From the IMG/VR virus record IMGVR_UViG_3300030107_004238, positions 7,969 through 71,968 of that record: DNA of 64,000 bases. The stretch is one strand, 5' to 3'. The translations under genes were made by a program, and so were the position numbers. Of this stretch, positions 13,601 to 60,274 are shown in pieces (position 1 is the stretch's first letter; the number at the start of each line of letters is the position of its first letter). This DNA is from a virus. The notes beneath the pieces were generated by a model. It saw nothing but the letters and a program-made list of their open reading frames with translations, was not told where the DNA came from and did not search any database.

Positions 13601-16600
13601 AAACATAAAACTGATACTCAACCCGGTGGTGGTGGTAATTGGGTTACGGATGATGGCGAAAGAGCAGCTTATCCTGAAACCTGGGCAGATGGACATGCTC
13701 ATTCAACAACATGGTCTGGAACTGAAAATTGTAAAATCAATGACCCTGATTTTAGAGTAAGTACTAGTAGTTATCTAACTGCCATACAAGGTGGGGATGG
13801 AGGAGATTTATCTTTTTCTGGCGGTACCACTGATTTAAATGATGGTTCTACTAATACTGCTGATTGGACTACTGGATTACAAATGATAAAAAATGGTAGT
13901 TTTAATTCTGCTGAACCAAGTGATTCTAATAAACTATCTTACTGGTACGAAGTATATAGCGACGCTAGTGGTAGCGAGGATCTTGGAAGCTGGGAATGGA
14001 ACCAAAGCGGTGAAGTACAAATAAATAACCCGTCCGCAAGTTCAACTGTAGGGAGTGGACCAGCCAAGCAGTGGGCGAATATACAGCAAATTAATTTTGG
14101 AGACGACACTACAGACAGATCATCTAATGATAGATTATTTTTTGAACCAGGTGGTGAATACAAATATCGATTTACAGTAAGTAATGTAACTGGTACGAGT
14201 GGTGCGGGAATGTTTATTCGATTATATAACAATTGGGGCTACGCACAAACTGCTACTACTAATACTGGTACTAAACCAGGTTGGAGCGTTGGTGATGGAA
14301 GCAGTGATGATCAATATGGCGTAATAACGTTTCGAGATTGGGTTAGTAGCGGTGAAAATGTTCCGGCTGGTTGGAAAGAGAGCGCTTTAGATGATGGTAT
14401 AAATAGAAACAAAGTGATATTTCATGTAAATAATCCACATCAAAACGATACAAGTCACGCCGATCACGAAAGATTAGATACTTGTACGTTAGCACGTGTT
14501 TACGTGTGGGCTAATAATAATATTAATAGAGTAAATTGGGGAACTAACGTGGGTGGTGGAATGGACGTTATAACCGGTACAACCGCTCAAATAGTTTCTT
14601 ATCCAGCTAGAGCAGACGGTGTTAGAGGCGCGGGTACTGGAACGTTTAAGTTGGTAGAGGGTAATTATTATAGAATGGATTATAAAATATCTAGTACTAA
14701 CTACGTGTCATGTGGTTTTAATATTGCTAACCCAGTTGATGAAAGCTTATCAGGTTCTGGCTGTTATATAGCGCTTTGGAAGCATTGTGCTCACGCTATG
14801 CATAATTTATTAGGTAATTACAAACAAGAAGGACTTACTTATTTAGACGTAGAAAACGGGACACACACAGTATATTGGCAGCAAGATAAAGATGCAAATC
14901 AATTAAGTATTTTATTAGGACGTGGTTTCGCTGGTAACATAGACGATATTGAGGTATATGATGTTACTGTGACTAAAACAGATATGGGTAAAGCTGGTAG
15001 CAATGATATTAGAAAAATGTTTAACGCTGAGATAGTCTCAATAGATAGTAGTTTAGCACAGTTACCACCTGAAGATCATACTAAGTGGGAGTGTGAGTTG
15101 CTAGACGAAGAACCTATATTTAAAAAAGTATTTCCTAGATTTGCTTATAGATGGAAATATAAAGATGGTGAATATTCCGCTATATCAGCTTTTACAGAGG
15201 TTGCTTTTGTACCTGATAATGATTATAAATATGATGCTAAAGATGGTTATAATTTAGCTATGGAAAACCAAGTTAGACGTGTAATATTAGATGATTTTGA
15301 CACTATGCCCCACGATGTTGTTGAATTAGATATTCTCTATAAAGAATCTAATAGCAATAGTATATATACTTTCACTACAATAAAAGGATCAGATTTAGAT
15401 AATTTTAGTAAATACGAAATTACTAAAGAAAAATACCACGCCTTAGTTGAAAGCAAGCAGTTATTACGTCCTTATGATAATATACCTAGAAAAGCTAAAG
15501 CACAAGAGATTTCTGCAAATAGAATTATATTTGGAAACTATACTCAGCAATACGATATAACACCTTCAGATGAACCAACTATAGAAGCATCGTTAATATC
15601 ACAAGGAGTGCAATCAGCTATTCAATCTAGAAAAACAATTAAATCTATAAGAGAATATCAAGTCGGTATTAGTTATCTAGATAAATATGGTAGACAATCC
15701 CCGGTTTTTTCTTCTGAAAATGGTTTAATACAGATTGATCAAAAGAATGCTAAAGATGCTAATTCTATTATCGCTGGTATAAATAATTTTCCTCCAGACT
15801 GGGTTACACATTATAAATACTATATAAAAGACAACGCGGCTTCTTATTACAATATATCTTTAGATAGATTTTGGCAAGCAGAAGAAAGTAACCACGTGTG
15901 GTTGTCTTTTCCTTCTAGTGATTTTAACAAATTATCTGTTGATGATTATTTAATATTAAAAAAAGGTCATGATACTGATAAAGCTTTAGCGCCTTTAAGA
16001 ACAGCTAAATATAAAATTTTAGCCAAACAAGGTAACGCCCCAGAGTTTATAAAAATGGTTAGAAAATCTATTGGTGGTAGAATATACAACACCGATGGAA
16101 AAGGATTACATTTTTTCACACAAACTAGTTACAATGGTAATTCAGGATTTTATCCTAGTAAAAATAAAACTACTTTTAGATTAAAAGGTAGTGTTGTACA
16201 CGCTAACAATGCTTTTAAGGAAGCTGTTATAGATGATCAAACAGGTAGATATATAAGAATAGGTAAACAAAGCGGTGGTAGAGCAAGTTATTTTTCTAAA
16301 TACTACGAAATACTACATATATCACGTACAATGTCTCCAACGGCAGACTCTTCAACTGCTGACGTTTGGAATCAAGATGACGCATATTATGAGTTTACTT
16401 TAGTAGAACCTTTTGATGATGATATTAGCTTTGTTGGCACTTCTTATACTGCTAGTAGAAAACTATTTATAGAATATTATAGAGAAGAAATTATTGATTT
16501 TGATAACGCGTATGAAGGTAAGTTTTTTGTTAAAATTGCAAAAGACGCGGCGTTTGACACGCATGTTGGTCAAAAGCAGAAAATTGAAGATTCTGGATAT

Positions 16601-19600
16601 AATATAATAAATGCACAAGACGCGTATTGGGCGCATGTTTATGAAAACAGCGCTAATAATACAAACGCTGATAAAGGGCAAGATACTGATGATTGGTTAT
16701 GGATAAGAAGAGTTTGGGGTACTGATGCTAATGGTGACCCTGAACTTCAAGCGGGAAATTTTGATTTCCACGTAAGTTCAGATGGTGCAGGTTATGATGC
16801 TACAACTTTAGATGGTGCTTACAACGGTAGCGATGTAGCTGAGTTCCCTGCCGTGTTAGCTAAAACAATAGATATAACTGCTTCTGGAGCTTCTTCTGCT
16901 ACAACTTGGGACAACCCATATACACAGGATTGGACGGGTACTTGGAGAAAAGAAGATTGGGGGAAACAAATTGATGGAAGTGTACCGCAAAGATTTTGTA
17001 TTGATCAAAGTTGGTCTTGGAATTGGTCTACTGGTAACGACGCATATAATGGTTATAAAGCTACAGAGTTTAACAGCAGGATAGGTCATGGGTTCATAAT
17101 AGGTAATTCTTGGTGTTCGTTTAAATTCGCTGGTATTGGAGAGATAGATGAAGGTACTGATAATACCGCAGGTAGTGCTACTGATGGTGGTACAAATACC
17201 GAACCAGATCCAAGCTCTAGCGATATAGATACAAACACTTGGAATGATGCTGGTGATGGAGAATTATCTGCCCAATGGTTTGATAATCACCCTTTATTAC
17301 AATCTTTAATAACAGAAGGAACGCAATTCAAATGGCAAGACGATCCTTCAGAAACAGTGTATACAATTCTAGAAGTAAAAAACAAAGGAATTATTCAAAA
17401 TTATGATCATAAACTACCAAATGGACGTAAATATGGTACTTCTATAGACGGTTATATATTAGATAAAAGCAAAGAGAACTTTGGTTATAGAATAGATTTA
17501 ATTTTAAACAAAACAATTGTTTGGAGTCCAACCGCGACGATTGGAAATGGTACTGGTTATAATACTGATGGTACACATTCACCATTAACTGCCTTTACTG
17601 ATAGCGCTGCTGGTACAACTTCACAAATTCAAATAGTAGAAAAAAGACCTAGTGAAAAAGCTTATACAAGTTTTAATCCAGCGGTTTTTGAAATAGAACC
17701 AAAAGAAAGAGTTGATTTAAATCTTTATTACGAAACTCCAGAAACTGGAATGGTATTACAAGATGGAATGTATATAGAAGCACTTAATAACACATCTGTT
17801 AATGACGAGGCTTACAATGTTGCTGGTGGTAATTATTTTTCTGATGTAAACGCTGGAACTATATACAAACCAGGTGGTAGTTACGCTTTGCCTTATGCTA
17901 AAATTTTTGGTGATGAAATGTTAGATAACTCTGATTTTGCAACAGCTGATTCAGGTACTAATACAGGAGCGGCTAAGTGGACTATTAATGACACGCCAAA
18001 CATAACAGCAACACATGACGCTACTAATCATAGGTTAGAAGTTATAAAACCTAACGGCGCCAGCGGAAGTTTTAATAATTTACAGTACGATGGCGATGGT
18101 ACTTCGGGTGGTGATCTTATTACTTTTCAAGATGGAGCAACATATGAAATACTACTTGATATAGAACATTTAGACAATGATGAAAATAATTACGGAGGTA
18201 CTCCAGAGTCAACCAAGTTGATAGTTAGAGGTCATGATGGTAGTGCTTGGACATCATACTATCCACTTAATCCTGGCGTTAATTGGCAAGCTGTCCCACC
18301 CTCTACATCACCAACAAAACACACATTCCAATTCACGTGGGATAGTTCACAAACAGGTGCATCTGGTAACCAAGCAAAAATATTTATAGAACTTACAGAT
18401 AGCACTACTAATTACAAAAAGAAATTAATATTAAATAACTTTTCTCTTAAAAAGGTTGAATATGACGAAACAAAACCGGTGTGTAGAATTATACATGGAG
18501 AGGGTTATGATTGGATGAATAGTAGTTCGAGAATATTTAGAATAAACAAAAACACTTGGGACGATGCGCCTCTTTTTCCAGAGATATACACACCTGGTCA
18601 AGATCTACCTTTAGGTATAACGATTAGACTCTCTAAAAGAGATCAATCTGGTAGAATCAAATATTATAAAGATTACTTGTTACCTACAGAACAGTTTGTA
18701 GCAGATAATCCTGAAAATATATTTATACCTTTGGAAACTTTAAAATGGCACAACGCTTTTGCTTTTGGAAATGGTGTTGAATCTAATAGACTAAGAGATG
18801 ATTTTAATGCGGTTACAATAGATAAAGGCCCTAGAGTTTCTACAACTTTAGAAGAAACATATAAAGAAGAGTATTTAGGTAGTGGTTTAATATTTTCAGG
18901 AATATATAACTCAACAAGTTCTGTAAACAAACTTAATCAATTTATTGCCGCTGAAAGTATAACAAAAAGTTTAAATCCAGAATACGGAAGTATACAAAAA
19001 CTATTTACTAGAAATACTAATATAGTTGCTTTTTGTGAAGATAAAATTTTAAAAGTTTTAGCAAATAAAGATGCTCTATATAACGCAGATGGTTCGGTAC
19101 AAATGACAGCTACAGACAAAGTCTTGGGACAAGCTATACCTTTTGTTGGTGAGTATGGTATATCAAGAAATCCAGAATCATTTGCAAATTTCGGTTATAG
19201 AGTTTATTTTACCGATAGAGATAGGGGCGCGGTGTTAAGATTATCCGCTGATGGGTTAACACCAATATCTGATAAAGATATGATTAGTTACTTTAAATAT
19301 AATCTACCAAACAACAATACAATGATTGGTAGTTATGATGAAAATAGAGATACTTATAATTTAACTTTAGACGAGACAACTGTAAGTTTCTCTGAAAAAG
19401 TAAATGGGTGGACAAGTTTCAAATCTTTCTTAGCTGAATCTGGTACTTCTATAAACGGAGAATATTATACATTTAAAAATGGTGATATATGGAAACATCA
19501 CACAAATGCTTTAAGAAACAATTTTTACAATACACAATATGAAAGTACTGTTAAGTTTATGTTTAATGATTTAGTTGATGAAATTAAAAACTTTAACACT

Positions 19601-20791
19601 ATTAATTATGAAGGTAGTACATCTAGATTATATGAAAAAGAAACTGGTCAAGAAAATCAACTGTTAAAATCAGGTTGGTATACTGACTCTATAATTACCG
19701 ATTTAGAATCTGCTGAAGTTGCTAGTTTTAAAGAGAGAGAGGGTAAATGGTTTAACAATATAACAGGTATAACAAAAACAGAAACAGATATAGATATTAA
19801 AGATTTTACATCGCAAGGACTGGGTGTATTACTTGGTATATCAACTAGTCATGCGAACTATAAAACTCTATCTATAAAAGCGATTACACCGAGTTCTGAA
19901 CCAGAAGTCGATGCTGTTACTAGTGGTAGTGGTGTTAATTATAATCCTGGCAGTGGAACAGTTGTTGATTTTAACTATCCTGAAGATACTGTTTATTTAG
20001 AAGATACTATAAATAACACAACAGGTATTACTGTTGAAAACGCAACACAAATATCATGGATTGAACACACTGCAAATACACCTCAAGATACAGATGGACC
20101 TGGTTTATATTATATAACTAATATTATTGGTGGGTTACAAAGAGGTAATAGATACTATATAGAAGCTGAAATAGAAAACTACTCTGGTAGCGCTACATCT
20201 GGTTTTTATGGGGCTAATATGGTTGATGGTAGTGCAATTAACACTGCAGAAAGAAATGATAATGGAAAAATTTATCGATATTTTACATATAACGATAATA
20301 AGTATTCTCAAGGAACGTTTGGTGAGCAAGGTGAAGGTATACATTTTTATAAAAGCGCTGAAACTAGTGGTACGGTTAAAAATATAAAATGTATAAATAT
20401 AACACCTAAGGTTGATGATGTTACTTTTGTGGTAAACACATCTTCAACGGATAGAACACAAACAACTACTGAGATAAAAACAAATAAAGAGGTTGGTTCA
20501 ACAGGTCTAGTGGCAACAACCCATGATTTTTATATACATAGTCAAACTGTTAACGGTTTAAAGTATGCTGTAGCAGCTAGTCAGTTTCAGGTTAGAAGCT
20601 CAAACGACATGGTAGAAGTTGGAACAATTACAGATTTAGGAGCGGGAACATCAGGGTCGGGTTACTATGCTAATGTTGTTAAAATACCTATTACCGTGAA
20701 CTATGGTGTTTCATCAGATCCGTTTCCAGATTTTAATATAGAATCTTATTTAAATATAATTGGCGAACCAACTTTAGCAATAGATCAATAA
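10601..20791 (+). CDS. Tail stabilisation / nozzle protein (P22 gp10-like position), greatly expanded
   Basis: N-terminal F..GKMNKDLDERL.P..EYRDALN; LFWTD..NEPKKIN; FPRFAYRWKY; C-terminal GNGVESNR, EYGISRNPESFA, GWTSFKSF. Many beta-sandwich inserts between these blocks. Confidence 0.75.
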   Translation: MPEIKNTFLGGKMNKDLDERLLPKNEYRDALNVEVSTSQGDDVGALQNTWGNTVQSNLSDIISGGKCIGSIVSKEKDKIYWFIKGDDVDAIAEYDIKLRNVSPVLVDYGMEDTYIQSFTSTTLNPNAIGSGAPVWNEITIWDSQGGWSNASPESHGTEGKSWDITGGNATAVWGRAGNMRLFVDEINLIEGYEYEIEYEVTILRSDQESGVYLTNHGPKGENVRLDVESSGVKKTRWVQGDYVGGSGHQRDNAVWIHHNSLTANNSAFSIDNIRIRQVNRFLNFEDVEYITGINILDGMLFWTDGQNEPKKINIERCKAGSYDITNFSTTTFVGPELVNNGSFTGNANGWTNSVGTSLPNAGWDYNSNNIIAVSVTSGKAIHDRNANIKRGKTYQITFDISSWTGGAIKPVLVDEYSSRTIMNTSISDGVDGTKTFIITTGLTNDTHTVYNLHTAYTYASGFYLICDWGPLNCIIDNISVKEIAFDWNRTTKVKDATGSYTRNITEEDITLIKKYPLNAPNMRLFSTTKPEGSVIDSFCETTYNTTYNYGTPMLDGSGDTIRWMQAIQFTLAKDAIGHTHTKGITPSQVDQLVQIDISNAMLASLDSNTLGSTVQHPLYLDDKYNPADPTRWKTGNSLYVDNSFTNQEDYHKHAWQMWCSINEHFPHHVWLIRESGGLDSGYLVNQDKIGGRLYVRMSTNRHTFDDQMHDFKKGSRITVGSWGYNNNASFWTYKNEDDEIVVKPPGTKAVEYNHGPDGKIITDSQGTLFEPSIINPEDHYTNSVGKFGSGWSGDGNRYIGNISTTTTTQHGAIYPSPGVALNVNGSGTDGYQYLHDVVQGLQKGYTYTVRAKFTIIDDQLNDTTRPAAGFSHLNARDSEQMSTTNLQLSHTASHGGSTNIYIINKNFEARSTGTLSLFKRNGVSVIVSELQCRAVYSNPIRINPLVFSPKPDYEVGDLVKMTNVKKAPNGDDINVVVKLNKEINNAFQNIGTTDQDIKSWKHKTDTQPGGGGNWVTDDGERAAYPETWADGHAHSTTWSGTENCKINDPDFRVSTSSYLTAIQGGDGGDLSFSGGTTDLNDGSTNTADWTTGLQMIKNGSFNSAEPSDSNKLSYWYEVYSDASGSEDLGSWEWNQSGEVQINNPSASSTVGSGPAKQWANIQQINFGDDTTDRSSNDRLFFEPGGEYKYRFTVSNVTGTSGAGMFIRLYNNWGYAQTATTNTGTKPGWSVGDGSSDDQYGVITFRDWVSSGENVPAGWKESALDDGINRNKVIFHVNNPHQNDTSHADHERLDTCTLARVYVWANNNINRVNWGTNVGGGMDVITGTTAQIVSYPARADGVRGAGTGTFKLVEGNYYRMDYKISSTNYVSCGFNIANPVDESLSGSGCYIALWKHCAHAMHNLLGNYKQEGLTYLDVENGTHTVYWQQDKDANQLSILLGRGFAGNIDDIEVYDVTVTKTDMGKAGSNDIRKMFNAEIVSIDSSLAQLPPEDHTKWECELLDEEPIFKKVFPRFAYRWKYKDGEYSAISAFTEVAFVPDNDYKYDAKDGYNLAMENQVRRVILDDFDTMPHDVVELDILYKESNSNSIYTFTTIKGSDLDNFSKYEITKEKYHALVESKQLLRPYDNIPRKAKAQEISANRIIFGNYTQQYDITPSDEPTIEASLISQGVQSAIQSRKTIKSIREYQVGISYLDKYGRQSPVFSSENGLIQIDQKNAKDANSIIAGINNFPPDWVTHYKYYIKDNAASYYNISLDRFWQAEESNHVWLSFPSSDFNKLSVDDYLILKKGHDTDKALAPLRTAKYKILAKQGNAPEFIKMVRKSIGGRIYNTDGKGLHFFTQTSYNGNSGFYPSKNKTTFRLKGSVVHANNAFKEAVIDDQTGRYIRIGKQSGGRASYFSKYYEILHISRTMSPTADSSTADVWNQDDAYYEFTLVEPFDDDISFVGTSYTASRKLFIEYYREEIIDFDNAYEGKFFVKIAKDAAFDTHVGQKQKIEDSGYNIINAQDAYWAHVYENSANNTNADKGQDTDDWLWIRRVWGTDANGDPELQAGNFDFHVSSDGAGYDATTLDGAYNGSDVAEFPAVLAKTIDITASGASSATTWDNPYTQDWTGTWRKEDWGKQIDGSVPQRFCIDQSWSWNWSTGNDAYNGYKATEFNSRIGHGFIIGNSWCSFKFAGIGEIDEGTDNTAGSATDGGTNTEPDPSSSDIDTNTWNDAGDGELSAQWFDNHPLLQSLITEGTQFKWQDDPSETVYTILEVKNKGIIQNYDHKLPNGRKYGTSIDGYILDKSKENFGYRIDLILNKTIVWSPTATIGNGTGYNTDGTHSPLTAFTDSAAGTTSQIQIVEKRPSEKAYTSFNPAVFEIEPKERVDLNLYYETPETGMVLQDGMYIEALNNTSVNDEAYNVAGGNYFSDVNAGTIYKPGGSYALPYAKIFGDEMLDNSDFATADSGTNTGAAKWTINDTPNITATHDATNHRLEVIKPNGASGSFNNLQYDGDGTSGGDLITFQDGATYEILLDIEHLDNDENNYGGTPESTKLIVRGHDGSAWTSYYPLNPGVNWQAVPPSTSPTKHTFQFTWDSSQTGASGNQAKIFIELTDSTTNYKKKLILNNFSLKKVEYDETKPVCRIIHGEGYDWMNSSSRIFRINKNTWDDAPLFPEIYTPGQDLPLGITIRLSKRDQSGRIKYYKDYLLPTEQFVADNPENIFIPLETLKWHNAFAFGNGVESNRLRDDFNAVTIDKGPRVSTTLEETYKEEYLGSGLIFSGIYNSTSSVNKLNQFIAAESITKSLNPEYGSIQKLFTRNTNIVAFCEDKILKVLANKDALYNADGSVQMTATDKVLGQAIPFVGEYGISRNPESFANFGYRVYFTDRDRGAVLRLSADGLTPISDKDMISYFKYNLPNNNTMIGSYDENRDTYNLTLDETTVSFSEKVNGWTSFKSFLAESGTSINGEYYTFKNGDIWKHHTNALRNNFYNTQYESTVKFMFNDLVDEIKNFNTINYEGSTSRLYEKETGQENQLLKSGWYTDSIITDLESAEVASFKEREGKWFNNITGITKTETDIDIKDFTSQGLGVLLGISTSHANYKTLSIKAITPSSEPEVDAVTSGSGVNYNPGSGTVVDFNYPEDTVYLEDTINNTTGITVENATQISWIEHTANTPQDTDGPGLYYITNIIGGLQRGNRYYIEAEIENYSGSATSGFYGANMVDGSAINTAERNDNGKIYRYFTYNDNKYSQGTFGEQGEGIHFYKSAETSGTVKNIKCINITPKVDDVTFVVNTSSTDRTQTTTEIKTNKEVGSTGLVATTHDFYIHSQTVNGLKYAVAASQFQVRSSNDMVEVGTITDLGAGTSGSGYYANVVKIPITVNYGVSSDPFPDFNIESYLNIIGEPTLAIDQ

Positions 20792-22257: not shown

Positions 22258-22285
22258 TACTCAAAAAGTGTAACTATATATATAC
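22250..22285 (+). promoter_or_regulatory. Class B promoter-like motif (GTAAA-N13-RTGTAA-x-TATA)
   Basis: GTAAA-taatactcaaaaa-GTGTAACTATATATATAC upstream of the GNAT/ejection genes; same N13 spacing at 51548-51583(-) and 60275-60310(+). Confidence 0.6.
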
Positions 22286-26036: not shown

Positions 26037-29000
26037 ATGTTTGAAATTTACGAGGTCAATGGACAACGATATGAAGTTAGTCCTGATCAACTAGAAAAAT
26101 TCTTTAAAGATTTTCCCAATGCTACTAAAGTGGGAAAGACAAGCGACTCTGCAAGTGCGGACCCGACTGCGGAGTCAAGCGATATGGGGTCCATATTGGA
26201 AAATGGTTCTTTGGCATTACCAGAAGCGAAAGACAGCAAGGATATAGTAAGAAATTTACCTCTAATAGATGATGCTGTAACTTATGACAAAGATCCAGTT
26301 TTAAAAGAGAATATCTTAAATAGTTTTTTTAATACAGACAATCTATTTAGACCTAGAGCTATTGACGAAACTCAAGCACCCGTAACCTTTAGCGGTATTG
26401 ATAGACCTAGTTATGGTATACATAGTAATATAACAGTACAAGGCACAGATACTGAATACAAAAACACAGAAGAAGAAGATTTAATAAATTATTTTGGAAA
26501 AGACAAATATAATTTATACAAAAAATATTTAGAAACTGGAGATTTAAAAACAGAAGATATACCAGAAAATCTTTCAAAAGGTTTTGAGGATATTAAAAAT
26601 GAAGAAACGTCTAAAAGATCTAGTCGTCTAAAAAAACTATACTTAGACCAAAATGACCATATTAAAATCGGTGATAGTTTTTATGATGGTGTTGCTATGG
26701 ATGAGGACGAAAGGGGATTATATTCAACTGATTTTATAGATTTATACGGCGAACAGGAAGATCTAGCAAAAGAACTAACTAGCGGATGGAGAGATCACAG
26801 AGGTTATACAAGTAACAAAACTGTTTTCCAAACACAGAAACAAAAGAAAGGTATTGCTGAGAAAACTGTTAAAATGCAAAATCAATACTTAACAGATTTA
26901 TCTACTGTTTTAGAAGAAGATTATGCTGCTTATGAAGAATATTTGAAAAGCTTAAATATTAAATCAGTTGATGATTTATCAACATTTATTAACGATCCCA
27001 ATATAGATATAAATACTAGAAAAGAAGTTTTGGCTAAAAATAGAGTTATGTCAAAACGTTTAAATGATTTTAAAACAATGGCTACTAAGTTTGACGATAG
27101 AGTAGCTGCGCTAAGCGCTTTAGATAAAAGTTACGATTGGGGTTATAGAGTAGGTTTATCTATTGAAAGAGATATATTTGGAGAGCTTTTTGGAGCTGGT
27201 AAGGCTATAGTAGCACTAGGCGCTCAAGAAACACTTGGTAAAGATTCTGAAATTTCAAAATATTTAAAAGATAGTTATGTTTCACATATAGATTATGTAG
27301 AAAGTTTAAAACAGAAAAAGGAAGCTAATTTACCACAGGATACTAAATTTGAAGATATTAACAGTTGGAATAGTTTCGGTGATTTTGTTGGAGAACAGCT
27401 TGGAAATAATATACTTAGTGTATCAACAGCTGGTGCATATGGTTTAGCAGTTAAGACCGGTAGTAAGCAAGCTGCTAAATGGGCGGGGAGAGCGGTGTTA
27501 GGTACTTTCTTTGGCGTTGAAGGAATGGGAAAGGTATCTGAAATGGAAATCGCTCAAAAACATGCTGCGGAAAACATAAAGTTTATAGATGAGGCTTTAG
27601 CTGATGAGAACACAACTCCAGATGTTAGAATAAGGTTGGAGGAGCAAAAAGAATTTAATGAAAAAGCTTTAAACTATAGTCAAGCAGAAAGAGCTTTTAT
27701 GGGGATGACGTATGGTGGTATTGCCGCTGTTGCAGAAAGAATGGGTACTATGCGTTGGATTGAAGATTTATATGGCACATCTAAAGTAGTAGGTCCGTTA
27801 ACGTTTAAATCAGGTTTACATCGTGCTAAAAACTTTATATTAAAAGTGCCTGGTACAGAGATGCTAGAGGAAACTGCAACGCAGGTCGGTCATAACTTAA
27901 TGGACGTTTTGATATTAAAAGAAAATAAGAGTTTAATAGAAGGGCTTGATCCAGATTTCTTCGCTAGTGTCTTTGTAACATCTATGGCTATAGGTGGACC
28001 TGGTGTTGCTGGGGGAGTTCGTAATGCTTTTAGAGGCGCTCTTCAAACAAGAGAAGAAACTAAAAAATTTAGAGATTTAAAAAGCGAATATGCAGAAAAT
28101 CATTTTATACTAAACCAAAGTCACAATAGATCACAGGGAGGTATAAATAAAAAACAAGCTGATGTTATTAAAGCTAGACAAGCAGAAATACTAAAAGAAA
28201 TTGAAGTACACGACATAAGTAGTTTTAATAAAATAGCAGATCTTGACAGTAAACAAGTAGAAAATCTTTTTGAAGTAGATAGAAAGCAAAGAGAAATATG
28301 GAAAAGAAATGCTCAATTAGGAGCTATTGGAAAAGAAAATAAGTCTATACTAAGAGAATCGAAAAAACTAAATAAAGAATATAACGATTTGCAATCTGAA
28401 AAAGACGCTATATTAGAGTCTCCAGCTAGAAAAAGAGAAGACAAACTAAAAGAAACCGCTAAAGAACAAGGATTAGAAGAAAGCGCCGCGATGAAACAAG
28501 CTTGGAATTATGGTAGAGCCGCTTATTATGACAATTTAGTTAAAGGGTTAGGTAGTAAAGTAAAGCGATTTGATGGCGAAAACATGGAACAAGATCTAAA
28601 TAAGTATTTAGACGAGGCAATCAAATCTGGTAAGTTAAAAGATAAAAAGTTAAAAGACGGAACTGTTATTACGGCTGAGATGCAAAAGAAACAAATAATA
28701 GAATCTGCAAAAACAAAAAAGAATTTAGATGGTAGCTTAAATATTGGTGCTAATGGAACGTTTGTTGGTAATGATATTATAACTTTTGAAAATAATAGAA
28801 GGCTTAACATGCTTTATGGTAATGATTTGGAAAAAGCTGACGCTATGCAAGTTGCTATCCATGAATTGCAGCACAAGTATGATATAAATAAGGGATTGGT
28901 TAAAGACGGTAAAGTTGTTGCTTCTCATAAACCTCTAGTAACAGCACTAAAACAACACGTGAAAGAGCTATATAAAAGAGGTGATATTGATAAGAAAACA

Positions 29001-32000
29001 TATAACCAATTTAAACAAAGAGTAGATCAATACAGTGATAAAGTAAATAAAAATAAAGTTGTTGATCAAACAGAATTATTAACATTATTAGGTACAATGA
29101 AACGTGCTGGAATGTTAAAAGAAGAAAAATCATCTCCCTTGTACGCTGCTAAATCTTTTATAAATAAAGTAAGAGCAATGGTTCATGGTGATAACCATAC
29201 GTTGTTAGATATGAATACAACTAAAGATGTGTTAAGATATATAGACACGTTTAACAAAAGAGTTGAGCAAGGTAAAAAAGTAGCAGCCACAATACCTGAG
29301 GAAGAAGCAATAAGTAAATTATCTAAAGGTATGACTAATAAAGCCGCTTCTGACAATGTTCAGCGTATATACGAAGAACAAGGTGAAGGTGGCGCTATGG
29401 ATATTATAGAACAGTTTAAACCTATTACGAGTAGAATAGCGGAAAGAAGAAGAGAGGCTCCTAATTATGATAAGGAACTTTTAATGAGTGAAATTGAAAT
29501 AGGTGAAAGAGGTATATTGGATTTAATTAGGGAATACAAACCAGAATCAGGAGTGCCGTTAGCTGCTTATATAAATAAGTTTTTACCAGCGAGAGCTATT
29601 GAGGCATCAAAAAGAGTATTGGGTGAAGAGTTTATCGAAGATATATCAGAAAGAGTTGATATAGCAGCTGAAGAAGTTACACAGGAGGTTAAAACAAAAC
29701 CTAAGAAAAAGAAAATAGTTTTAGCAGATAGATTAGGTGTTACAGAAGAAGTCGCAAAAGCTATTAAGAAAATAATGCCTAAAATAGATTTTAATAAAGA
29801 GACTTTTAAAACTTTAAAAAATCAAATTCCTGAGATAACAGGCGAGATGTTTGGTATAGCTCCTAAAAAAATAAAAAACCTAGCTAATTTAACAAAAAAA
29901 GAGTTACAATCAGCCCAAATGTTTATTAATAAAAACGCAAATTTATTAATCAATATGTTACCAGAGGGTGCTACAGCCGGTGGTACAGCCACAGGTGTTC
30001 CCAATACTTTATTAAAAGCGTTTTATACTAAAACTGATAGAGCTAAAATGGTTAAAACTGGTAGTAAAGCTGGTTTAGCAGTACAGCAAAAAAATAAAAT
30101 AGATAAAAAAGAGTTTTTAGAAACATTTGGTATTATAGATGGTAAACCTATCCGTACAGATAGAAACACATCAGCTAGAGTATTAGCATTAGCTAATTTA
30201 ACTGGTAAAATGATAACCAACCAAGCTGTTAGACAATCGTTAATTAGCGGCGGTAAAACCGTAGGTGAGGTAACTTCTTTGTCAGACGGTAAGTCTGTGA
30301 CCATGTTTAGTTTAGGTAGCAGAATAAAAGTAACTGGTCCAATCTCTGAACAAGCGCAAAGATTAGCAGATCAAATAGGTAAAAAAGCCACGTATGATAA
30401 TATGGTTAAAGCTGCTGGTTTAGATATAGATACTGGCGAGTTAAAATTAAAACCTATAGATTTAACAACTGAAAAAGGACGGCAAGAATATATTGGTTTT
30501 ATTGTAGAGGTATTAGCACCTGTGTTTCCTAAAGATATTTTACTTGCAATGTCTGGTTCTTTTGCTAGAGGGGATAGTGCAATTGAAAAAGCTAATAAAA
30601 ATAAGTTTTTATTCCAAAACAAAGAGCAGTTTGAAATATTTTTAGAGACGCTAGAAGCAACGGGTGTTGTTTTTGGACAAGATATGACGGTAGAAGATAG
30701 AAATGATATATTAAACGCTATTAAACGTGAAGGTTATGGCAAAGCTACTAGTAAAACGCAAAATAAAAAAATGAAGGATGAAGATCTTAAAGCTAGTAAA
30801 AAAAGAGGCTTTAAGTTAATATGGAAAAGTATACAAGATAATATTCAAAATGATCAACGTACTATACCTGGCTTTGCACTTATGCTTTCTTCTTCTAGTA
30901 GGTTCCAAGGACATTTTACTAGAACTGGCGCTATTATTGATTTTGTTAATAGTTTAACTGGAAAAAATAGAGAAGAACACACGTCCCCCATAACAGCTCT
31001 TGGTAAATATTTGTTTTTGCACGCAATAACTGGTGATTTATTTACAGGTGGAAAAAATAGCATATTTGAAAACGCAACTAAATCTTACTTTCAAGGTTCT
31101 TTACCAGTTTTTATGGATAATAGATTAAAACTAAAAGGTAGTTATGATTACTCATCATTACCACCAATAGAACATTTAGAAGGTATATTAAAAGGTGATA
31201 TATCAATATGGGCTAGATACTTTCATCCTAATGTAAATAATAATTTTAATACAGATCTTGACTCGATGTCTAAAGAAGATATTGCAAATGAGTTACATAA
31301 AATAGGTGGTATAAATCCTAACGTTATATACTTAGCAAATGGAAACACTATAGCTCAAGAGTTTGGTGTTGATGTAAACGTTAAAATAACACCACAAATA
31401 GTGGCGGCACAGCAAGATTTAATATACAGGATGGCCATTGGAGAAAAAATTAGCAAAAGCAAAATAAAATCAGTTCTTGATTCTGCTGTTAATTTAAAAA
31501 TTGAAAAAAATTTAAAAGAAAATAAAACATTAAATGATGCCGCTGTTCAAGGTAGAAAAATCATTAAGGAATCTAAAGGTATTACTGTTTTAGATTTTGA
31601 TGATACACTAGCAACAACTAAGTCTGGTGTTAGAGCAACTATACCTAATTTAGATGGAACACCGAAACCTGGTAGAAAAGCTATACTATTAGCTGGTGGG
31701 GCTGGTAGTGGTAAATCAAATGTTGTTAAACAGTTAGGTTTAGTTAAAGATGGTTTTAAAGTTGTTAATCAAGATATAGCCTTAGAATGGTTAAAGAAAA
31801 ACGCTGGTATACCTACAGATATGAGAGATTTAACTAGGGAACAACTATCTACACTTGGTAAACTAAGTTGGGAAGCTAGAAAAATTGCAAAAAGAAAGTA
31901 TGGTAAATTTAAAGGTCAAGGAGATGGGGTTGTAATTGATGGTACCGGAGGATCTGTTAAAAACATTCAAACACAGAAAGCAGAATTAGAAGCTGCAGGT

Positions 32001-34718
32001 TACGATGTTCAAATGTTATTTGTAGAAACATCACTGGATGTAGCTTTAGAAAGAAATAAACTTAGAAAAGAAAGATCATTAAGAGATAGTATTGTAAAAA
32101 GAAACCACGAAGCGGTACAAAAAAATAAATCTGAATTTAAAGAAATATTTGGCAAAGGATTTACAGAGATTAATACAGATAACTTAAAACAAAACGATCC
32201 AATACCAGCTAATGTATCAAATAAGATAAATGAATTTGTTACTGGCTATGAAAAAAGAAGATTAGATGCTGAAGAATTCGCTAGAGAAGGAGCTGACTTA
32301 CTAGCGCAGGGAGCTAAGTTTGATTTTTCAGAATTTAACGTTGTCATGGAAGGACAAACAGCACCATTGTTTAACAAGGCAATGAAATTACAAGATAAGT
32401 TTGGTAGTAAAGATATGTTCGTGTTAACAGCTAGACCAGCAGAATCAGCGCCACATATACATGAATTTTTAAAAGCTAATGGTTTAAATATACCATTAAA
32501 AAACATAACTGGTCTTGCTAATTCTACTGCAGAAGCTAAAGCGCTTTGGATAGCTGATAAAGTTGGTGAAGGTTATAATGATTTTTATTTTGCTGATGAT
32601 GCTTTGCAAAACGTTCAAGCTGTACAAAACATGTTAGATCAATTCGATGTTAAGTCTAAAGTCCAACAAGCTAAGATTAATTTTAGCAAAGGAGCTAAAG
32701 TACAGTTTAATGATATAATGCAAGACGTAACTGGCATTGATTCTAATAAAAGATTTTCATTGGCAAAAGCTAGAAAACGTGGAGAAAAGAAAGGAAGATT
32801 TAGACCTTTTATTCCACCATCACATGAGGATTTTATAGGGTTATTATACAACTTTATAGGTAAAGGAGAAAAAGGTAATCAACATAGAGACTTCTTTGAA
32901 AAGAACTTAATAAAACCATTGAATAGAGCTTATAATGAATTGAATGCTGCTAAACAAGTTATATCTAATGATTATAAAAACTTGATAAAGAAGTTTCCTG
33001 ATACTCGTAAAAAATTAACAAAGAAAACTCCAGATGGTGATTATACTTATGGTGACGCTTTGAGAGTATATCTTTGGGATAAGGCTGGGTTTGAAATACC
33101 GGGTATGTCTAAAACAGATGTAAAAGAATTAACTGATTTAGTAAAGTCAGATCCTAGTTTACAATCATTTGCGGATGCAGTTGGTTTAATATCTAGACAG
33201 AAAGAAGGGTATACAAAACCAAAAGAAGAGTGGGAAGTAGGTGATATAAGAACAGATTTAGCGGATGCTACTATGGACACTGGTAGACAAAAGTTTTTTG
33301 GAGAGTTTATAGAAAATGCAGATATAATTTTTGATAAAGAAAATTTAAATAAAATAGAAGCTGCTTTTGGAAGAGACTTTAGAGAAGCTTTAGAAGATAT
33401 GTTATACAGAATTAAGAATGGTAGAAAGAGGCCAACTGGTAACAACAAACTTGTAAATAGATTTACTGAATGGATAAACGGAGCTGTTGGATCAACAATG
33501 TTTATAAACACTAGATCAGCCGTATTACAGCAATTATCTATGGTTAACTTTTTAAATTTTGAAGACAACAATATATTTACAGCTGCCAAAGCTTTTGCAA
33601 ATCAAAAACAATTTTGGAAAGATTATGCTAAAATATTTAATTCAGATTTCCTAAAACAAAGACGGTCAGGTATAGCTTTTGATGTAAACGGCGCTGAATT
33701 AGCTCAGGCAGTATCTAAGTCTAAAGAGCCTTTTAGAGCCGCTATAAGACATTTATTACAAAAAGGTTTTATATTAACCCAGTTAGGTGATAGTAATGCG
33801 ATAGCTATGGGTGGTGCTACATTTTATAGAAATAGAGTTAATAAATATTTAAAAGATGGTTTAAGTCAGAAGGAAGCCGAGACAAGAGCTTGGGATGATT
33901 TTGTTGCGATAGCTGAAACCACGCAGCAATCAGCTAGAGCTGATATGACATCGGGACAGCAAAATTCACCTCTTGGTAAATTTATATTAGCTTTTCAAAA
34001 TGTTACTTCTCAGTATAACAGAATAATGAAAAAAGCTGGTTTGGATTTAATCAATAGAAGAAAATCACCACCTTATACTAGCCAAGTAAAAAGTGATATG
34101 GCTAATATTTCTAAAATAATATATTACGGGGCTATACAAAACGCTGTGTTCTATGGGTTACAAACAGCTTTATTTGCAATGATGTTTAGTGATGATGAAA
34201 AAGACGAAGAATTCTTTAAAAAGAAAAGAGATCGGGTGATTCATGGTAGTATAGATAGTATACTAAGAGGTATGGGTGTTGGTGGAGCTATAATCTCTAC
34301 GCTTATAAACACAGCTATGAAATTTGCAGCTGAACAAAATAAAGATTGGAATAGTTCAACTAGCATCTTAATGAATGAATTACTTCAATTATCACCACCT
34401 CTTGGTATTAAAGCTAGAAAACTAACTAGTGCTGAAAAAACACTAAAATATAATAAGAAGACTATTGAAAAAATGGATACGTTTGATTTAGAAAACCCGC
34501 TTTGGGAAGCTACATCAAACATTGTTGAGGGCACAACAAACGCTCCAGTTAACAGATTGCATAGATTAGTTACAAATACTGGAGAAGCTCTTAACGCTGA
34601 AAATGAATGGTGGCAAAGATTAGCATTGGGCTTAGGATGGAGCACTTGGGATGTTGGTATAAATACAAAGGAAAAATTGAAGAAGAAAAAGAGTAAAAGA
34701 AAAATTAGATTAAATTAA
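26037..34718 (+). CDS. Giant polyvalent (putatively virion-ejected) protein: TM-like segments, HExxH motif, sigma-70 region-2-like domain, HAD phosphatase with nested P-loop kinase
   Basis: IHELQH (~28857); PITSRIA...GILDLIREYKPESGVPLAAYINKFLPAR (~29420-29600); VLDFDDTL (~31590); GGAGSGKS (~31695) with VVIDGTG and VETSLDVALERN; VLTARP (~32421); FADDALQNV (~32590). Confidence 0.75.
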   Translation: MFEIYEVNGQRYEVSPDQLEKFFKDFPNATKVGKTSDSASADPTAESSDMGSILENGSLALPEAKDSKDIVRNLPLIDDAVTYDKDPVLKENILNSFFNTDNLFRPRAIDETQAPVTFSGIDRPSYGIHSNITVQGTDTEYKNTEEEDLINYFGKDKYNLYKKYLETGDLKTEDIPENLSKGFEDIKNEETSKRSSRLKKLYLDQNDHIKIGDSFYDGVAMDEDERGLYSTDFIDLYGEQEDLAKELTSGWRDHRGYTSNKTVFQTQKQKKGIAEKTVKMQNQYLTDLSTVLEEDYAAYEEYLKSLNIKSVDDLSTFINDPNIDINTRKEVLAKNRVMSKRLNDFKTMATKFDDRVAALSALDKSYDWGYRVGLSIERDIFGELFGAGKAIVALGAQETLGKDSEISKYLKDSYVSHIDYVESLKQKKEANLPQDTKFEDINSWNSFGDFVGEQLGNNILSVSTAGAYGLAVKTGSKQAAKWAGRAVLGTFFGVEGMGKVSEMEIAQKHAAENIKFIDEALADENTTPDVRIRLEEQKEFNEKALNYSQAERAFMGMTYGGIAAVAERMGTMRWIEDLYGTSKVVGPLTFKSGLHRAKNFILKVPGTEMLEETATQVGHNLMDVLILKENKSLIEGLDPDFFASVFVTSMAIGGPGVAGGVRNAFRGALQTREETKKFRDLKSEYAENHFILNQSHNRSQGGINKKQADVIKARQAEILKEIEVHDISSFNKIADLDSKQVENLFEVDRKQREIWKRNAQLGAIGKENKSILRESKKLNKEYNDLQSEKDAILESPARKREDKLKETAKEQGLEESAAMKQAWNYGRAAYYDNLVKGLGSKVKRFDGENMEQDLNKYLDEAIKSGKLKDKKLKDGTVITAEMQKKQIIESAKTKKNLDGSLNIGANGTFVGNDIITFENNRRLNMLYGNDLEKADAMQVAIHELQHKYDINKGLVKDGKVVASHKPLVTALKQHVKELYKRGDIDKKTYNQFKQRVDQYSDKVNKNKVVDQTELLTLLGTMKRAGMLKEEKSSPLYAAKSFINKVRAMVHGDNHTLLDMNTTKDVLRYIDTFNKRVEQGKKVAATIPEEEAISKLSKGMTNKAASDNVQRIYEEQGEGGAMDIIEQFKPITSRIAERRREAPNYDKELLMSEIEIGERGILDLIREYKPESGVPLAAYINKFLPARAIEASKRVLGEEFIEDISERVDIAAEEVTQEVKTKPKKKKIVLADRLGVTEEVAKAIKKIMPKIDFNKETFKTLKNQIPEITGEMFGIAPKKIKNLANLTKKELQSAQMFINKNANLLINMLPEGATAGGTATGVPNTLLKAFYTKTDRAKMVKTGSKAGLAVQQKNKIDKKEFLETFGIIDGKPIRTDRNTSARVLALANLTGKMITNQAVRQSLISGGKTVGEVTSLSDGKSVTMFSLGSRIKVTGPISEQAQRLADQIGKKATYDNMVKAAGLDIDTGELKLKPIDLTTEKGRQEYIGFIVEVLAPVFPKDILLAMSGSFARGDSAIEKANKNKFLFQNKEQFEIFLETLEATGVVFGQDMTVEDRNDILNAIKREGYGKATSKTQNKKMKDEDLKASKKRGFKLIWKSIQDNIQNDQRTIPGFALMLSSSSRFQGHFTRTGAIIDFVNSLTGKNREEHTSPITALGKYLFLHAITGDLFTGGKNSIFENATKSYFQGSLPVFMDNRLKLKGSYDYSSLPPIEHLEGILKGDISIWARYFHPNVNNNFNTDLDSMSKEDIANELHKIGGINPNVIYLANGNTIAQEFGVDVNVKITPQIVAAQQDLIYRMAIGEKISKSKIKSVLDSAVNLKIEKNLKENKTLNDAAVQGRKIIKESKGITVLDFDDTLATTKSGVRATIPNLDGTPKPGRKAILLAGGAGSGKSNVVKQLGLVKDGFKVVNQDIALEWLKKNAGIPTDMRDLTREQLSTLGKLSWEARKIAKRKYGKFKGQGDGVVIDGTGGSVKNIQTQKAELEAAGYDVQMLFVETSLDVALERNKLRKERSLRDSIVKRNHEAVQKNKSEFKEIFGKGFTEINTDNLKQNDPIPANVSNKINEFVTGYEKRRLDAEEFAREGADLLAQGAKFDFSEFNVVMEGQTAPLFNKAMKLQDKFGSKDMFVLTARPAESAPHIHEFLKANGLNIPLKNITGLANSTAEAKALWIADKVGEGYNDFYFADDALQNVQAVQNMLDQFDVKSKVQQAKINFSKGAKVQFNDIMQDVTGIDSNKRFSLAKARKRGEKKGRFRPFIPPSHEDFIGLLYNFIGKGEKGNQHRDFFEKNLIKPLNRAYNELNAAKQVISNDYKNLIKKFPDTRKKLTKKTPDGDYTYGDALRVYLWDKAGFEIPGMSKTDVKELTDLVKSDPSLQSFADAVGLISRQKEGYTKPKEEWEVGDIRTDLADATMDTGRQKFFGEFIENADIIFDKENLNKIEAAFGRDFREALEDMLYRIKNGRKRPTGNNKLVNRFTEWINGAVGSTMFINTRSAVLQQLSMVNFLNFEDNNIFTAAKAFANQKQFWKDYAKIFNSDFLKQRRSGIAFDVNGAELAQAVSKSKEPFRAAIRHLLQKGFILTQLGDSNAIAMGGATFYRNRVNKYLKDGLSQKEAETRAWDDFVAIAETTQQSARADMTSGQQNSPLGKFILAFQNVTSQYNRIMKKAGLDLINRRKSPPYTSQVKSDMANISKIIYYGAIQNAVFYGLQTALFAMMFSDDEKDEEFFKKKRDRVIHGSIDSILRGMGVGGAIISTLINTAMKFAAEQNKDWNSSTSILMNELLQLSPPLGIKARKLTSAEKTLKYNKKTIEKMDTFDLENPLWEATSNIVEGTTNAPVNRLHRLVTNTGEALNAENEWWQRLALGLGWSTWDVGINTKEKLKKKKSKRKIRLN

Positions 34719-51547: not shown

Positions 51548-51583
51548 GTATATATATAATTACACGTTTTTATTCACTTTTAC
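51548..51583 (-). promoter_or_regulatory. Class B promoter-like motif
   Basis: Minus strand GTAAA-agtgaataaaaac-GTGTAATTATATATATAC upstream of the erf/replication operon. Confidence 0.6.
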
Positions 51584-53413: not shown

Positions 53414-53647
53414 TAGCCTATTACTTATTATATTTAGGGGCTGTTGTCACAGTCCCCTTTGGTTTCAATGTTGCAATAATTATCCTTGTTTCGTTATCAT
53501 TAGGATATTTTATTTTATTCCAATTATCTATTCGTTTGATTAATTCTTTATTCATTTTGATATTTAATTATCTTTTCTAATACTTTTACTAATTTAGTTA
53601 AGGCTTTAGTTAAGTCGCTAATGTCCCTATACATTTGTTGTTGATTC

Positions 53648-54656: not shown

Positions 54657-54994
54657 TATTTATATTTTTTAAGTATTTTATTTACTTGATCCATTCTGTT
54701 TTTGATAATAGCACATTTTTCATATTCTTCATCTTGTTTGCATATATCCATTAGTGTTAATAATTTAGCTGCTTCGCCTAAAGCCTCTATTTCTTCTGAC
54801 AACTCTAAATCTTTATATGGTTGCCAAGAGGTTTCAGTACGGTTAACGTGATTAAACCAATCTTCCATAGATTTTAACTTAACCATTCGGCTAACTATTT
54901 TAACAGCTAAAGCGTTTAATCCAGCATCATCTAATTTTGAATCTTCTAATGCTTTTAATATTTGTTTGTTTGTTACCCTTTTATTATCCGTCAT
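54656..54994 (-). CDS. Hypothetical protein with UVR-like C-terminal helix pair
   Basis: EEYEKCAIIKN motif. Confidence 0.55.
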   Translation of the reverse strand: MTDNKRVTNKQILKALEDSKLDDAGLNALAVKIVSRMVKLKSMEDWFNHVNRTETSWQPYKDLELSEEIEALGEAAKLLTLMDICKQDEEYEKCAIIKNRMDQVNKILKKYK

Positions 54995-55379
54995 AATTCG
55001 TATTTTGTTTGTATTTTTCTATTAATTTATCTGGTCTCCCTACAAAGATACATTTATCTTCATCTTTTCCAATATATTGATTGCAATCTTTACAATATCT
55101 TGGAAAACTTACTTCAAATATACTTATCCAAGCGCCGGCATCTGGTTTTTGCCACACATAATATATATATTCTAGATCACCGTGTTTTGTATCTAAATCT
55201 TCTATTTCCCACCTATTTATTTTACCGTAATTAGTAAAACATTCAGCTATTTCTACTCCCAATCCCTCAGGATAACCATCACTATGCACGTAAAACTGTG
55301 CGTGAATTTTTTCTGGATGCTCGTTAAACGTTACTCCTTCTTCACGTGTAGCGAATCTAACTTGTGCTCTTGTACTCAT
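54984..55379 (-). CDS. Phage hypothetical protein (YxHxDGYP type)
   Basis: MSTRA, YVHSDGYPEGLG, DLEYIY. Confidence 0.7.
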   Translation of the reverse strand: MSTRAQVRFATREEGVTFNEHPEKIHAQFYVHSDGYPEGLGVEIAECFTNYGKINRWEIEDLDTKHGDLEYIYYVWQKPDAGAWISIFEVSFPRYCKDCNQYIGKDEDKCIFVGRPDKLIEKYKQNTNYDG

Positions 55380-55381
55380 AT

Positions 55382-56772: not shown

Positions 56773-56807
56773 TATATTATCCTACTTTATTCGTATTTAT
56801 ATTGTAA
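56773..56807 (-). promoter_or_regulatory. Class A (early) promoter-like motif
   Basis: Minus strand TTACAA-ta-TAAATACGA-N8-GGATAATATA. Confidence 0.75.
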
Positions 56808-58455: not shown

Positions 58456-58490
58456 TATATTATCCAATAGTAATCGTATTTAGTTTGTAA
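58456..58490 (-). promoter_or_regulatory. Class A (early) promoter-like motif
   Basis: Minus strand TTACAA-ac-TAAATACGA-N8-GGATAATATA. Confidence 0.75.
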
Positions 58491-59739: not shown

Positions 59740-59774
59740 TATATTATCCATTTAGTCTCGTATTTACATTGTAA
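59740..59774 (-). promoter_or_regulatory. Class A (early) promoter-like motif
   Basis: Minus strand TTACAA-tg-TAAATACGA-N8-GGATAATATA. Confidence 0.75.
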
Positions 59775-59866: not shown

Positions 59867-59901
59867 TATATTATCCAATATGTGTCGTATTTAGTTTGTG
59901 A
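59867..59901 (-). promoter_or_regulatory. Class A (early) promoter-like motif
   Basis: Minus strand TCACAA-ac-TAAATACGA-N8-GGATAATATA. Confidence 0.75.
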
Positions 59902-60274
59902 AAATTAGTTATATAAAATATAAATAGTAGTAATGATTGAACATGAATACACATGGTGAATACGAATCAACGTGGATAATATGAATGAACGTGATCGACG
60001 ACGGCGGAACGGAAACGCCAAACGATTACGACGGTTTAATCTGGTTGAACGGGGCCCGCGAAGAAAATTTCGGTTTTTCTGGGAACACCCGGCTGGGGGA
60101 GAGGGGGCTACACCATCCCCCAAAATATGTAATATTTTTTTATATGACAATAGGTAGTTAATATAGGTAGAGTAACTGGCTAATGTCACTCTTTACCTAA
60201 GGATATTACTAGGGTAATATCTAGGATTAGAGATAGGTTAGTAGAGATAGGGAGTAATAGGCAATTGTCATAAT
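59902..60274. other. Divergent non-coding control region (candidate origin / packaging site / genome end)
   Basis: Coding strand switches here; GC-rich island 59990-60121; TGACA/TGTCA motifs; GATATTAC-tagg-GTAATATC hairpin at 60202-60221. Confidence 0.55.

Follow-up and report, generated by a model that had tools for sequence, protein, structure and literature searches.

How does a phage in which no RNA polymerase (RNAP) of its own can be recognized switch on its first genes? Phage early transcription is known to rely on the host holoenzyme, on an injected complete RNAP (N4, crAss-like and phiKZ-like phages) or on injected polymerase-modifying enzymes (T4 Alt). The question is raised here by the IMG/VR virus record IMGVR_UViG_3300030107_004238, which is 71,968 bp long and rated complete by CheckV. 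We analyzed its positions 7969-71968, a stretch of 64,000 nucleotides (nt) referred to below as the window, and within it a giant open reading frame (ORF) of 2,893 amino acids (aa) that contains a domain resembling domain 2 of the sigma-70 factors. An earlier note, made from the letters of the DNA, had proposed that this domain is injected with the phage DNA, redirects the host core RNAP to the promoters of the early region (class A motifs) and so leads to the expression of a second, free sigma factor. The observation from which that proposal started is confirmed by our analysis, and the two-sigma cascade built upon it is partly supported.

The sigma-2-like bundle and the giant protein around it

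The peptide that the earlier note had matched to the sigma region-2 pattern was located at aa 1123-1189 of the giant ORF (nt 29403-29603, within the interval 29340-29660 proposed for it). An AlphaFold2 (AF2) model of aa 1040-1430, built from 50 aligned sequences, shows a helical block with a predicted local distance difference test (pLDDT) score of 84-97 over aa 1100-1195 (model residues 61-156). When the model was compared with 48,161 chains by VIA-align, the best rows were sigma28 (6pmj_F, Z 8.0, root-mean-square deviation (rmsd) 2.5, 76 residues aligned) and the N-terminal domain of SigE (8b3z_A, Z 7.8), followed by a sigma70 fragment (1sig_A, Z 7.7) and SigB (8x6g_H, Z 7.5), and SigR, sigma32, SigA domain 2, SigC, RpoS and AlgU were ranked as well. 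Going by the entry titles, sigma or RNAP-sigma entries fill at least 25 of the 29 highest rows. Such entries also make up 48 of the 50 matches listed by Foldseek for the PDB, every one with an E-value of 0.055 or higher. For BFVD, Foldseek returned a homologous giant protein first (E 1e-6) and phage sigma factors next, with 7 of the top 15 rows named sigma. In the ESM Atlas, PF04542 (Sigma70_r2) is present on 26 of the 30 named neighbours at scores of 0.96-0.97, a score of at least 0.95 being expected about once in 100 by chance according to the tool.

The segment was also aligned by hand, with the usual sigma numbering and consensus. This alignment runs from a region-1.2-like D-x-V-x-x-x-Y-x-E-x-G stretch through a helix resembling region 2.3/2.4, in which Y1178 is nearly invariant and position 1182 is mostly aromatic, and the end points of the VIA-align match to 1sig_A (model residues 66-157 against chain residues 113-446) agree with it. 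E1152, Y1167, N1180 and R1186 also count among the invariant residues. Because the structure searches and the language-model neighbours point the same way, a sigma-2-like fold is accepted for aa 1101-1199 as modelled.

The bundle is followed by a linker and a conserved basic domain (Table 1), whose net charge of +15 stands against -4 for the bundle and whose conserved residues are chiefly K, R, N, T and Y. On account of this charge and these residues, the basic domain (aa 1229-1405) probably binds nucleic acid. The AlphaFold check that the earlier note had suggested thus gave a confident, sigma-2-like model for the bundle, and aa 1229-1405 came out without a known fold: the best scores were Z 4.3 in VIA-align, E 1.8 in Foldseek and 0.81 in the Atlas, none of them a clear match. 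Homeodomain and POU rows were returned for the basic domain at Z 3.1-3.8, too weak to be retained. Distant relatives lack a short pair of helices located at aa ~1229-1250.

Short repeated motifs mark the borders of the module formed by the bundle, linker and basic domain. Upstream, [F/M/L]-S-K or -R precedes it in most of the 19 close homologues and in a looser form in the 50-sequence set, and downstream MF[S/T/A/E] is found in 36 of the 39 sequences (among the 50 aligned) that have residues at this place. Of the 19 close homologues, 17 have F-S-K again after the HAD domain, and further KFSK copies flank extra inserted modules in the homologues P0003 and P0008. Such repeated junctions fit a polyprotein that is cut into pieces, with the module released separately. 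The protease-like HExxH motif to which the earlier note had drawn attention is indeed close by and is present in 238 of the 265 proteins of the giant family, fragments counted; the region matched no Pfam family when the whole protein was searched.

The architecture of the giant protein is that of cargo or ejection (polyvalent) proteins, as seen in its position in the virion module, the HExxH motif, a kinase inside a HAD domain, a homologue with an SLT domain and the repeated junctions. The HAD domain spans aa 1846-2215, and in the consensus of 19 homologues it lacks the kinase insert, which is thus lineage-specific. The SLT (lytic transglycosylase) domain, PF01464, was found on one homologue. 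By synteny with the cargo genes of PhicrAss001, the giant protein is probably packed in the virion.

Compared with its counterparts in five complete related genomes, the sigma-like segment shows 51-75% identity; no other part of the giant protein is conserved as well, the remaining parts being 22-58% identical or undetected in these relatives. The corresponding identities are 53-64% for the free sigma, 54-67% for the portal and 50-62% for the capsid-like protein, and the terminase, primase-helicase and ribonucleotide reductase (70-81%) stand above the segment. A search with aa 1060-1360 returned 922 proteins (clustered at 90% identity) at E<=0.001 among 4,297 candidates, and the best 120 of these 922 homologues are 55-98% identical and 1,789-3,400 aa long. 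An exhaustive search of 50%-identity representatives yielded 410 at E<=0.001. Where no contig end cuts the locus (56 viral loci), the segment is followed by at least 1,118 aa. Some short matches, P0148 and P0264 among them, have the module near the N-terminus and may be either split genes or contig ends. Among cultured phages (50,697 phage records), blastn and tblastn gave no match for the region, and the full-length giant protein matched kinase domains only.

Class A motifs, the free sigma gene and the search for a polymerase

Class A motifs, 27-33 bp in length, head the leftward early region in the window and in the five mapped relatives. The window holds four exact copies and two with 2-3 mismatches, against 0.00 expected, and the five leftward copies are upstream of the free sigma gene. 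Each of the five related complete genomes contains the class A core in 5-10 copies, against 0 in the reversed control; the core was also found in four of five more distant genomes, the exception being 82% complete, so that nine of ten genomes carry it in total. In the five mapped relatives, the motif cluster is followed in turn by ligase, a 208-aa ORF, the free sigma, ERF and primase-helicase.

From 41 fully flanked sites in six genomes the class A consensus is TTACAAACTAAATACGA-N8-GGATAATAT. At 22 of 42 sites from the six genomes, an ATG that opens an ORF of at least 30 codons begins 12-18 nt from the first G of the final block, and at 15 of the 42 the ATG stands at exactly position 14 from the first G of GGATAAT. 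Position 14 is 7 nt past GATAAT, the canonical distance from a -10 element to +1; if GATAAT is taken as the -10 hexamer, position 14 would be the canonical +1 and many early messages would be leaderless. Class A could be read by a bacterial RNAP carrying a -10 reader of the sigma-2 type, be it the module, the free sigma or the host primary sigma. To judge from its sequence, the geometry of class A fits a plain primary-sigma promoter poorly, with about 27 conserved positions, a spacing of about 20 bp between GATAAT and a -35-like TTACAA, and an invariant block of 9 bp in that interval. The Bacteroidota primary-sigma promoter consensus, TTG-N17-21-TAnnTTTG, is not enriched in the window (4 occurrences vs 7.7 in mononucleotide shuffles), and real promoters may deviate from it.

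Some further features of the motif were observed. At a fixed distance past the first class A copies of each early region, in a conserved ATGTAAATAA stretch, a start codon is directly followed by a stop, (A/G)TG TAA; of the 42 sites in the six genomes, 9 show this pattern, for example in the 3' flanks of 59740-59772 and 59867-59899 (-). Some copies, such as 3446-3472 (-) in the relative G005 and 58456-58488 (-) in the window, are similar to T7 class III promoters in having AATACGA, CACTAT in the spacer and GG. The exact class A core was also found in 18 stretches of bacterial records, mostly short contigs of marine metagenome-assembled genomes (MAGs), where about 4 would be expected by a rough estimate. 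These records are labelled as Bacteroidetes, Flavobacteriaceae, Alphaproteobacteria and others, and one of them is a 117-kb Flavobacteriaceae MAG contig with two copies; our guess is that they are phage contigs binned with bacteria. At least 20 sequencing runs match positions 52000-60500; they are marine metagenomes, with no RNA run among those listed.

The free sigma is encoded in all five related genomes. Its family is large, with at least 8,000 metagenome candidates, all at E<=0.001, and the best 120 of them, its own cluster included, are 71-100% identical and nearly all 252 aa long. A second promoter-like motif, class B, has two exact copies in the window, one immediately downstream of the free sigma gene and one ahead of the ORF cluster whose last member is the giant gene. 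It occupies the same post-sigma spot in the relatives G006 (63329) and G003 (53907) and is a candidate target of the free sigma.

The earlier statement that no DxDxD motif is visible was pursued through several scans, which bear it out. DxDxD is absent from the giant ORF and from the upstream 3,396-aa ORF, and in a six-frame scan of the 71,968 bp the pattern D[FYWLIVM]DxD occurred in ORFs of more than 150 aa only in the capsid-like ORF. Among the giant-family proteins, 56 of 265 contain DxDxD, at scattered, mutually unaligned and unconserved places. PF00623 gave no match in the genome; PF00940 gave none either, the control genomes being equally silent. In the four large virion ORFs, a regular-expression search for the single-subunit RNAP motifs T/DxxGR, A, B (RxxxKx7YG) and C detected no motif B and no ordered set, and profile searches of the giant-protein family against PDB sequences returned no polymerase. 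On these scans, the genome is without a recognizable phage RNAP. As no phage RNAP was found and class A lies upstream of the free sigma gene, a pre-made factor would be needed for the first round of transcription.

Three portal-related phages, Maribacter phage Panino, MW202828 and Flavobacterium phage elemoA, were used as outgroups. The module was detected in none of the three by a profile search that had no positive control in the same run, a PF04542 sigma was likewise found in none, and for class A there was one match with three mismatches, in one of the three. From their joint presence in the relatives and joint absence from the three outgroups, the module, the free sigma and class A appear to travel together. 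At the position of the giant ORF, MW202828.1 and Panino also have a giant ORF (3,859 and 1,829 aa) with no detectable similarity to it and no sigma gene; what fills the cargo slot seems to be exchanged from one lineage to another.

Table 1. Coordinates of the features discussed, given as positions in the window.
Feature	Position	Strand	Evidence or remark
3,396-aa muzzle-like tail protein	10601..20791	+	PF25729 crAss_MUZ_C, E 3.7e-7; marks the virion module
Class B motif GTGTAAnTATATATATAC, exact	22268..22285	+	Upstream of the ORF cluster ending in the giant gene
Giant ORF, 2,893 aa, multidomain polyprotein of predicted cargo/ejection type	26037..34718	+	ORF list and translation; five ORFs past the muzzle-like gene
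Candidate zincin protease site HExxH (HELQH), aa 942-946	28860..28874	+	Motif; H942, E943, H946 and E1013 invariant in 19/19 homologues
L-S-K junction motif on the upstream side, aa 1095-1097 ([F/M/L]-S-K in the family)	29319..29327	+	Homologue alignment
Sigma domain-2-like helical bundle, aa 1101-1199 (predicted)	29337..29633	+	AF2 model and structure searches; covers stretches resembling regions 1.2 and 2.1-2.4
Linker, first acidic and then basic, aa 1200-1228 (disorder predicted)	29634..29720	+	pLDDT <50 for model residues 160-183
Conserved basic domain, aa 1229-1405	29721..30251	+	Model pLDDT 88.1, predicted template modelling score (pTM) 0.84; 41-52% identity to the five relatives
Downstream junction motif M-F-S, aa 1423-1425	30303..30311	+	M-F-S in 19/19 close homologues
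HAD phosphatase-like domain with inserted P-loop kinase, then third F-S-K junction (aa 2216-2218)	31572..32681	+	AAA_33/Zeta_toxin match at aa 1880-2033
Class B motif GTGTAAnTATATATATAC	51548..51565	-	Directly after the free sigma gene
Free sigma-70-family gene, 252 aa	51603..52361	-	Sigma70_r4 E 1.8e-5, Sigma70_r2 E 7.9e-5
Class A motif, 2 mismatches	54980..55012	-	
Class A early motif, exact	56773..56805	-	
Class A early motif, exact	58456..58488	-	
Class A early motif, exact	59740..59772	-	
Class A early motif ACAA-N2-TAAATACGA-N8-GGATAATATA, exact	59867..59899	-	
Class A-like motif, 3 mismatches	59951..59983	+	Rightward from the divergent control region

The rightward genes of the genome encode the terminase, the portal, the capsid-like protein, other virion proteins and the 3,396-aa muzzle-like protein. 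The portal is 43-53% identical to the portals of Flavobacterium, Cellulophaga, Maribacter and Tenacibaculum podophages, and a type IX secretion sorting domain was found on another ORF; for these two reasons the host is most likely a member of the Flavobacteriaceae. Just upstream of the ORFs at 6683 and 7580 there are G+C-rich inverted repeats followed by T-runs (6610-6683 and 7522-7580, both +), which look like terminators between virion genes. A gene for a phage GroEL-like chaperonin (63248-64000, +) runs past the end of the window; both GroEL and GroES are also encoded by Maribacter phage Panino and MW202828.

Possible roles of the module

Our reading, which we put forward tentatively and hold to be possible rather than probable, is that the module of about 325 residues (aa ~1098-1425) is a delivered sigma-like factor that docks on the host RNAP and helps to fire class A. 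The giant polyprotein would be packaged into the particle and leave it together with the DNA, and the module would perhaps be excised at the [F/M/L]-S-K and M-F-S junctions by the HExxH domain. The sigma-2-like bundle would then dock on the beta-prime clamp helices of the host core RNAP, and the first transcripts would start at class A promoters, with GATAAT in the 3' block serving as the -10-like element. These transcripts would include that of the free sigma gene, whose product would then take over. Packaging, cleavage, RNAP docking and promoter reading are all steps that we infer from the features described above. The fuller version of the proposal, in which a very abundant family of marine flavobacterial podophages without an RNAP of their own injects a cut-out sigma-like factor whose basic, DNA-binding domain replaces sigma-3/4, and in which transcripts from the conserved class A promoter of about 30 bp are leaderless and open a two-sigma cascade, appears doubtful to us as a whole.

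Several results weigh against a delivered sigma-like factor. The first group concerns the sequence searches: Pfam gave no Sigma70_r2 match at E<=10 for either the whole protein or the segment, and at the same threshold none of 63 giant-family members matched this profile. NCBIfam returned a single weak SigK row for the segment (E 0.014, 14.9 bits against a cut-off of 298), the six-frame PF04542 search of the genome matched the free sigma gene only, and PF00140 (region 1.2) was negative in all six frames at E<=10 with positive control genomes, so the likeness to region 1.2 is a short motif resemblance seen by eye. No sigma was found by phmmer and profile searches against PDB sequences, and comparison with the free sigma gave Prob 5.6% in hhalign (against its family) and E 71 in BLASTP. 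As the sequence profiles are all silent, the case for sigma homology is one of fold and language-model features, and according to the caution that comes with VIA-align, Z scores of 6-8 are within the range that small helical bundles reach by a common arrangement.

The second group concerns function. Neither sigma-3 nor sigma-4 was found with PF08281 on the genome or with the model of aa 1225-1410, for which VIA-align and Foldseek listed no sigma rows, and -35-type recognition and flap binding are therefore unaccounted for. In all 80 viral loci the segment is inside the giant frame with at least 605 aa upstream, and no free-standing form was seen, although no search was dedicated to shorter proteins. 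The relatives G001 and G005 each carry one extra class A copy downstream of the sigma gene. As the module and the free sigma are always paired, their co-occurrence cannot tell which of them reads class A. Co-folding of the segment with residues 200-380 of RPOC_FLAJ1, a range set from E. coli numbering and run without controls, scored 0.21 against a mark of 0.32 and is evidence neither way. Finally, the host primary sigma could itself read GATAAT, since for the Cellulophaga phage phi14:2, whose host belongs to the same family, the host RNAP is reported to read an "extended tripartite motif" and the C. baltica RNAP to use a sigma-70-type promoter, T7 A1 (10.1101/2020.03.07.982082).

The last point leads to the alternative that survives best, in which the bundle docks on the host RNAP as a decoy or competitor (host shut-off) or as a tether to the entering DNA, and class A is read by the host holoenzyme or by the free sigma. 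This draws on the same fold evidence and on the failure to find a sigma-4, and it is helped by the canonical-looking GATAAT at a proper distance from start codons, by the phi14:2 and C. baltica observations just cited and by the free sigma, which accompanies the motif in all five relatives and is absent together with it from all three outgroups. The same observations bear on the earlier note, which had called the early motif non-host: the motif is real, lies upstream of the free sigma and recurs in nine of ten related genomes, but the premise that it is foreign to the host is weakened by GATAAT and by phi14:2. The motif as a whole, however, is unlike a plain primary-sigma promoter in its ~27 conserved positions, its 9-bp spacer block and the ~20-bp spacing of TTACAA, and the lack of enrichment of the Bacteroidota consensus also speaks against reading by the host holoenzyme. 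The free sigma, for its part, could not start the first round unless it were packaged, because its gene is downstream of the class A cluster. With these points considered, we regard docking without promoter reading as unlikely.

It would be still less expected, and in our view improbable, that the fold has no role at the RNAP at all and serves instead as a cargo scaffold or packing element, as a binder of an anti-sigma-type partner in the manner of PhyR, or in general DNA or RNA binding together with the basic domain. The silent sequence profiles, Z scores in a range possibly reached by a common helical arrangement and the constant embedding of the segment in the giant ORF are what would be expected in that case. 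On the other hand, three independent lists as well as the language-model neighbours are dominated by sigma entries rather than by generic bundles, the giant protein is nowhere better conserved than in the segment, and the module, free sigma and promoter motif travel as a package.

That the giant protein hides an unrecognized RNAP, with the bundle as its promoter-melting part and class A as the phage-RNAP promoter, is very improbable: several class A copies do resemble the T7 class III promoter, and the fixed 13-nt distance from GG to ATG is compatible with a start at GG, but DxDxD is conserved neither in the 265 family proteins nor in the genome, PF00623 is negative, as is PF00940 (with its silent control), no ordered single-subunit motifs and no polymerase in the PDB profile searches were found, and in aa 1229-1405 conservation falls mostly on K, R, N, T and Y rather than on acidic residues. 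The absence of a known fold is in itself compatible with such an enzyme, as about 1,600 residues of the crAss-like RNAP gp66 are likewise described as mapping to no known fold (10.1101/2020.03.07.982082).

A delivered sigma-like factor that helps to fire class A hence remains the reading that we prefer, with the reservations given. It lends itself to direct testing, since the module (325 residues) and the DNA motif (33 bp) are both defined.

Comparison with known systems

The closest likeness of the module is to domain 2 of the sigma-70 factors, with about 76-90 aligned residues, Z 7.5-8.0, rmsd 2.5-3.0, the same helix order and an acidic character, and, in the hand alignment, with a conserved Tyr and a mostly aromatic position in the last helix. 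In sigma factors, this last helix of domain 2 reads and melts the -10 element. Sigma-70 factors are free proteins of 20-70 kDa, whereas the module is located midway in a protein of 2,893 aa, is silent in profile searches, has no detected sigma-4 and is followed by a basic domain. A sigma-2-type protein without sigma-4 is known from phage T4: gp55, which we take to be chain F of 7d7d from the entry title and chain length, was matched at Z 6.5 and rmsd 3.1 over 90 aligned residues. It recognizes an A/T-rich, -10-like element and is a free late protein that needs gp33 and the sliding clamp. The module, in contrast, belongs to a putative virion protein, and its action would come first rather than last. 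A sigma-like fold within a larger protein is also found in PhyR, in which a sigma-like domain mimics sigma-2 and sigma-4 and binds an anti-sigma; no sign of an anti-sigma partner was found here.

With the RNAPs that crAss-like phages and N4 carry in the virion, the giant protein shares its size and its place, encoded after the tail or muzzle genes, its packing here being deduced from gene position. In PhicrAss001, the genes after the muzzle encode cargo and RNAP-associated proteins (gp47, gp49 and gp50) that are described as present in virions by mass spectrometry (PMC10172136), and gp66 of the crAss-like phi14:2 is described as a virion RNAP with the catalytic motif DFDID that starts early transcription (10.1101/2020.03.07.982082). 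Unlike these, the giant family has no conserved DxDxD and no polymerase match, and it would bring a specificity or docking part in place of an enzyme. Our literature search found no report of a sigma-type docking or melting module delivered inside a virion protein.

Polyvalent proteins are described as injected giants that often carry a zincin-like peptidase, thought to free the other domains, along with kinases and nucleic-acid-binding domains (PMC5512222). The word sigma is absent from the main text of that survey (PMC5512222), and among their payloads a sigma-like domain would be of a new kind. If the reading is true, the module would be a minimal sigma factor resting on a new DNA-binding domain, and it would explain how phages without an RNAP and without obvious host promoters switch on their genes. 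It would then represent a third strategy, beside injecting an RNAP and using the host sigma.

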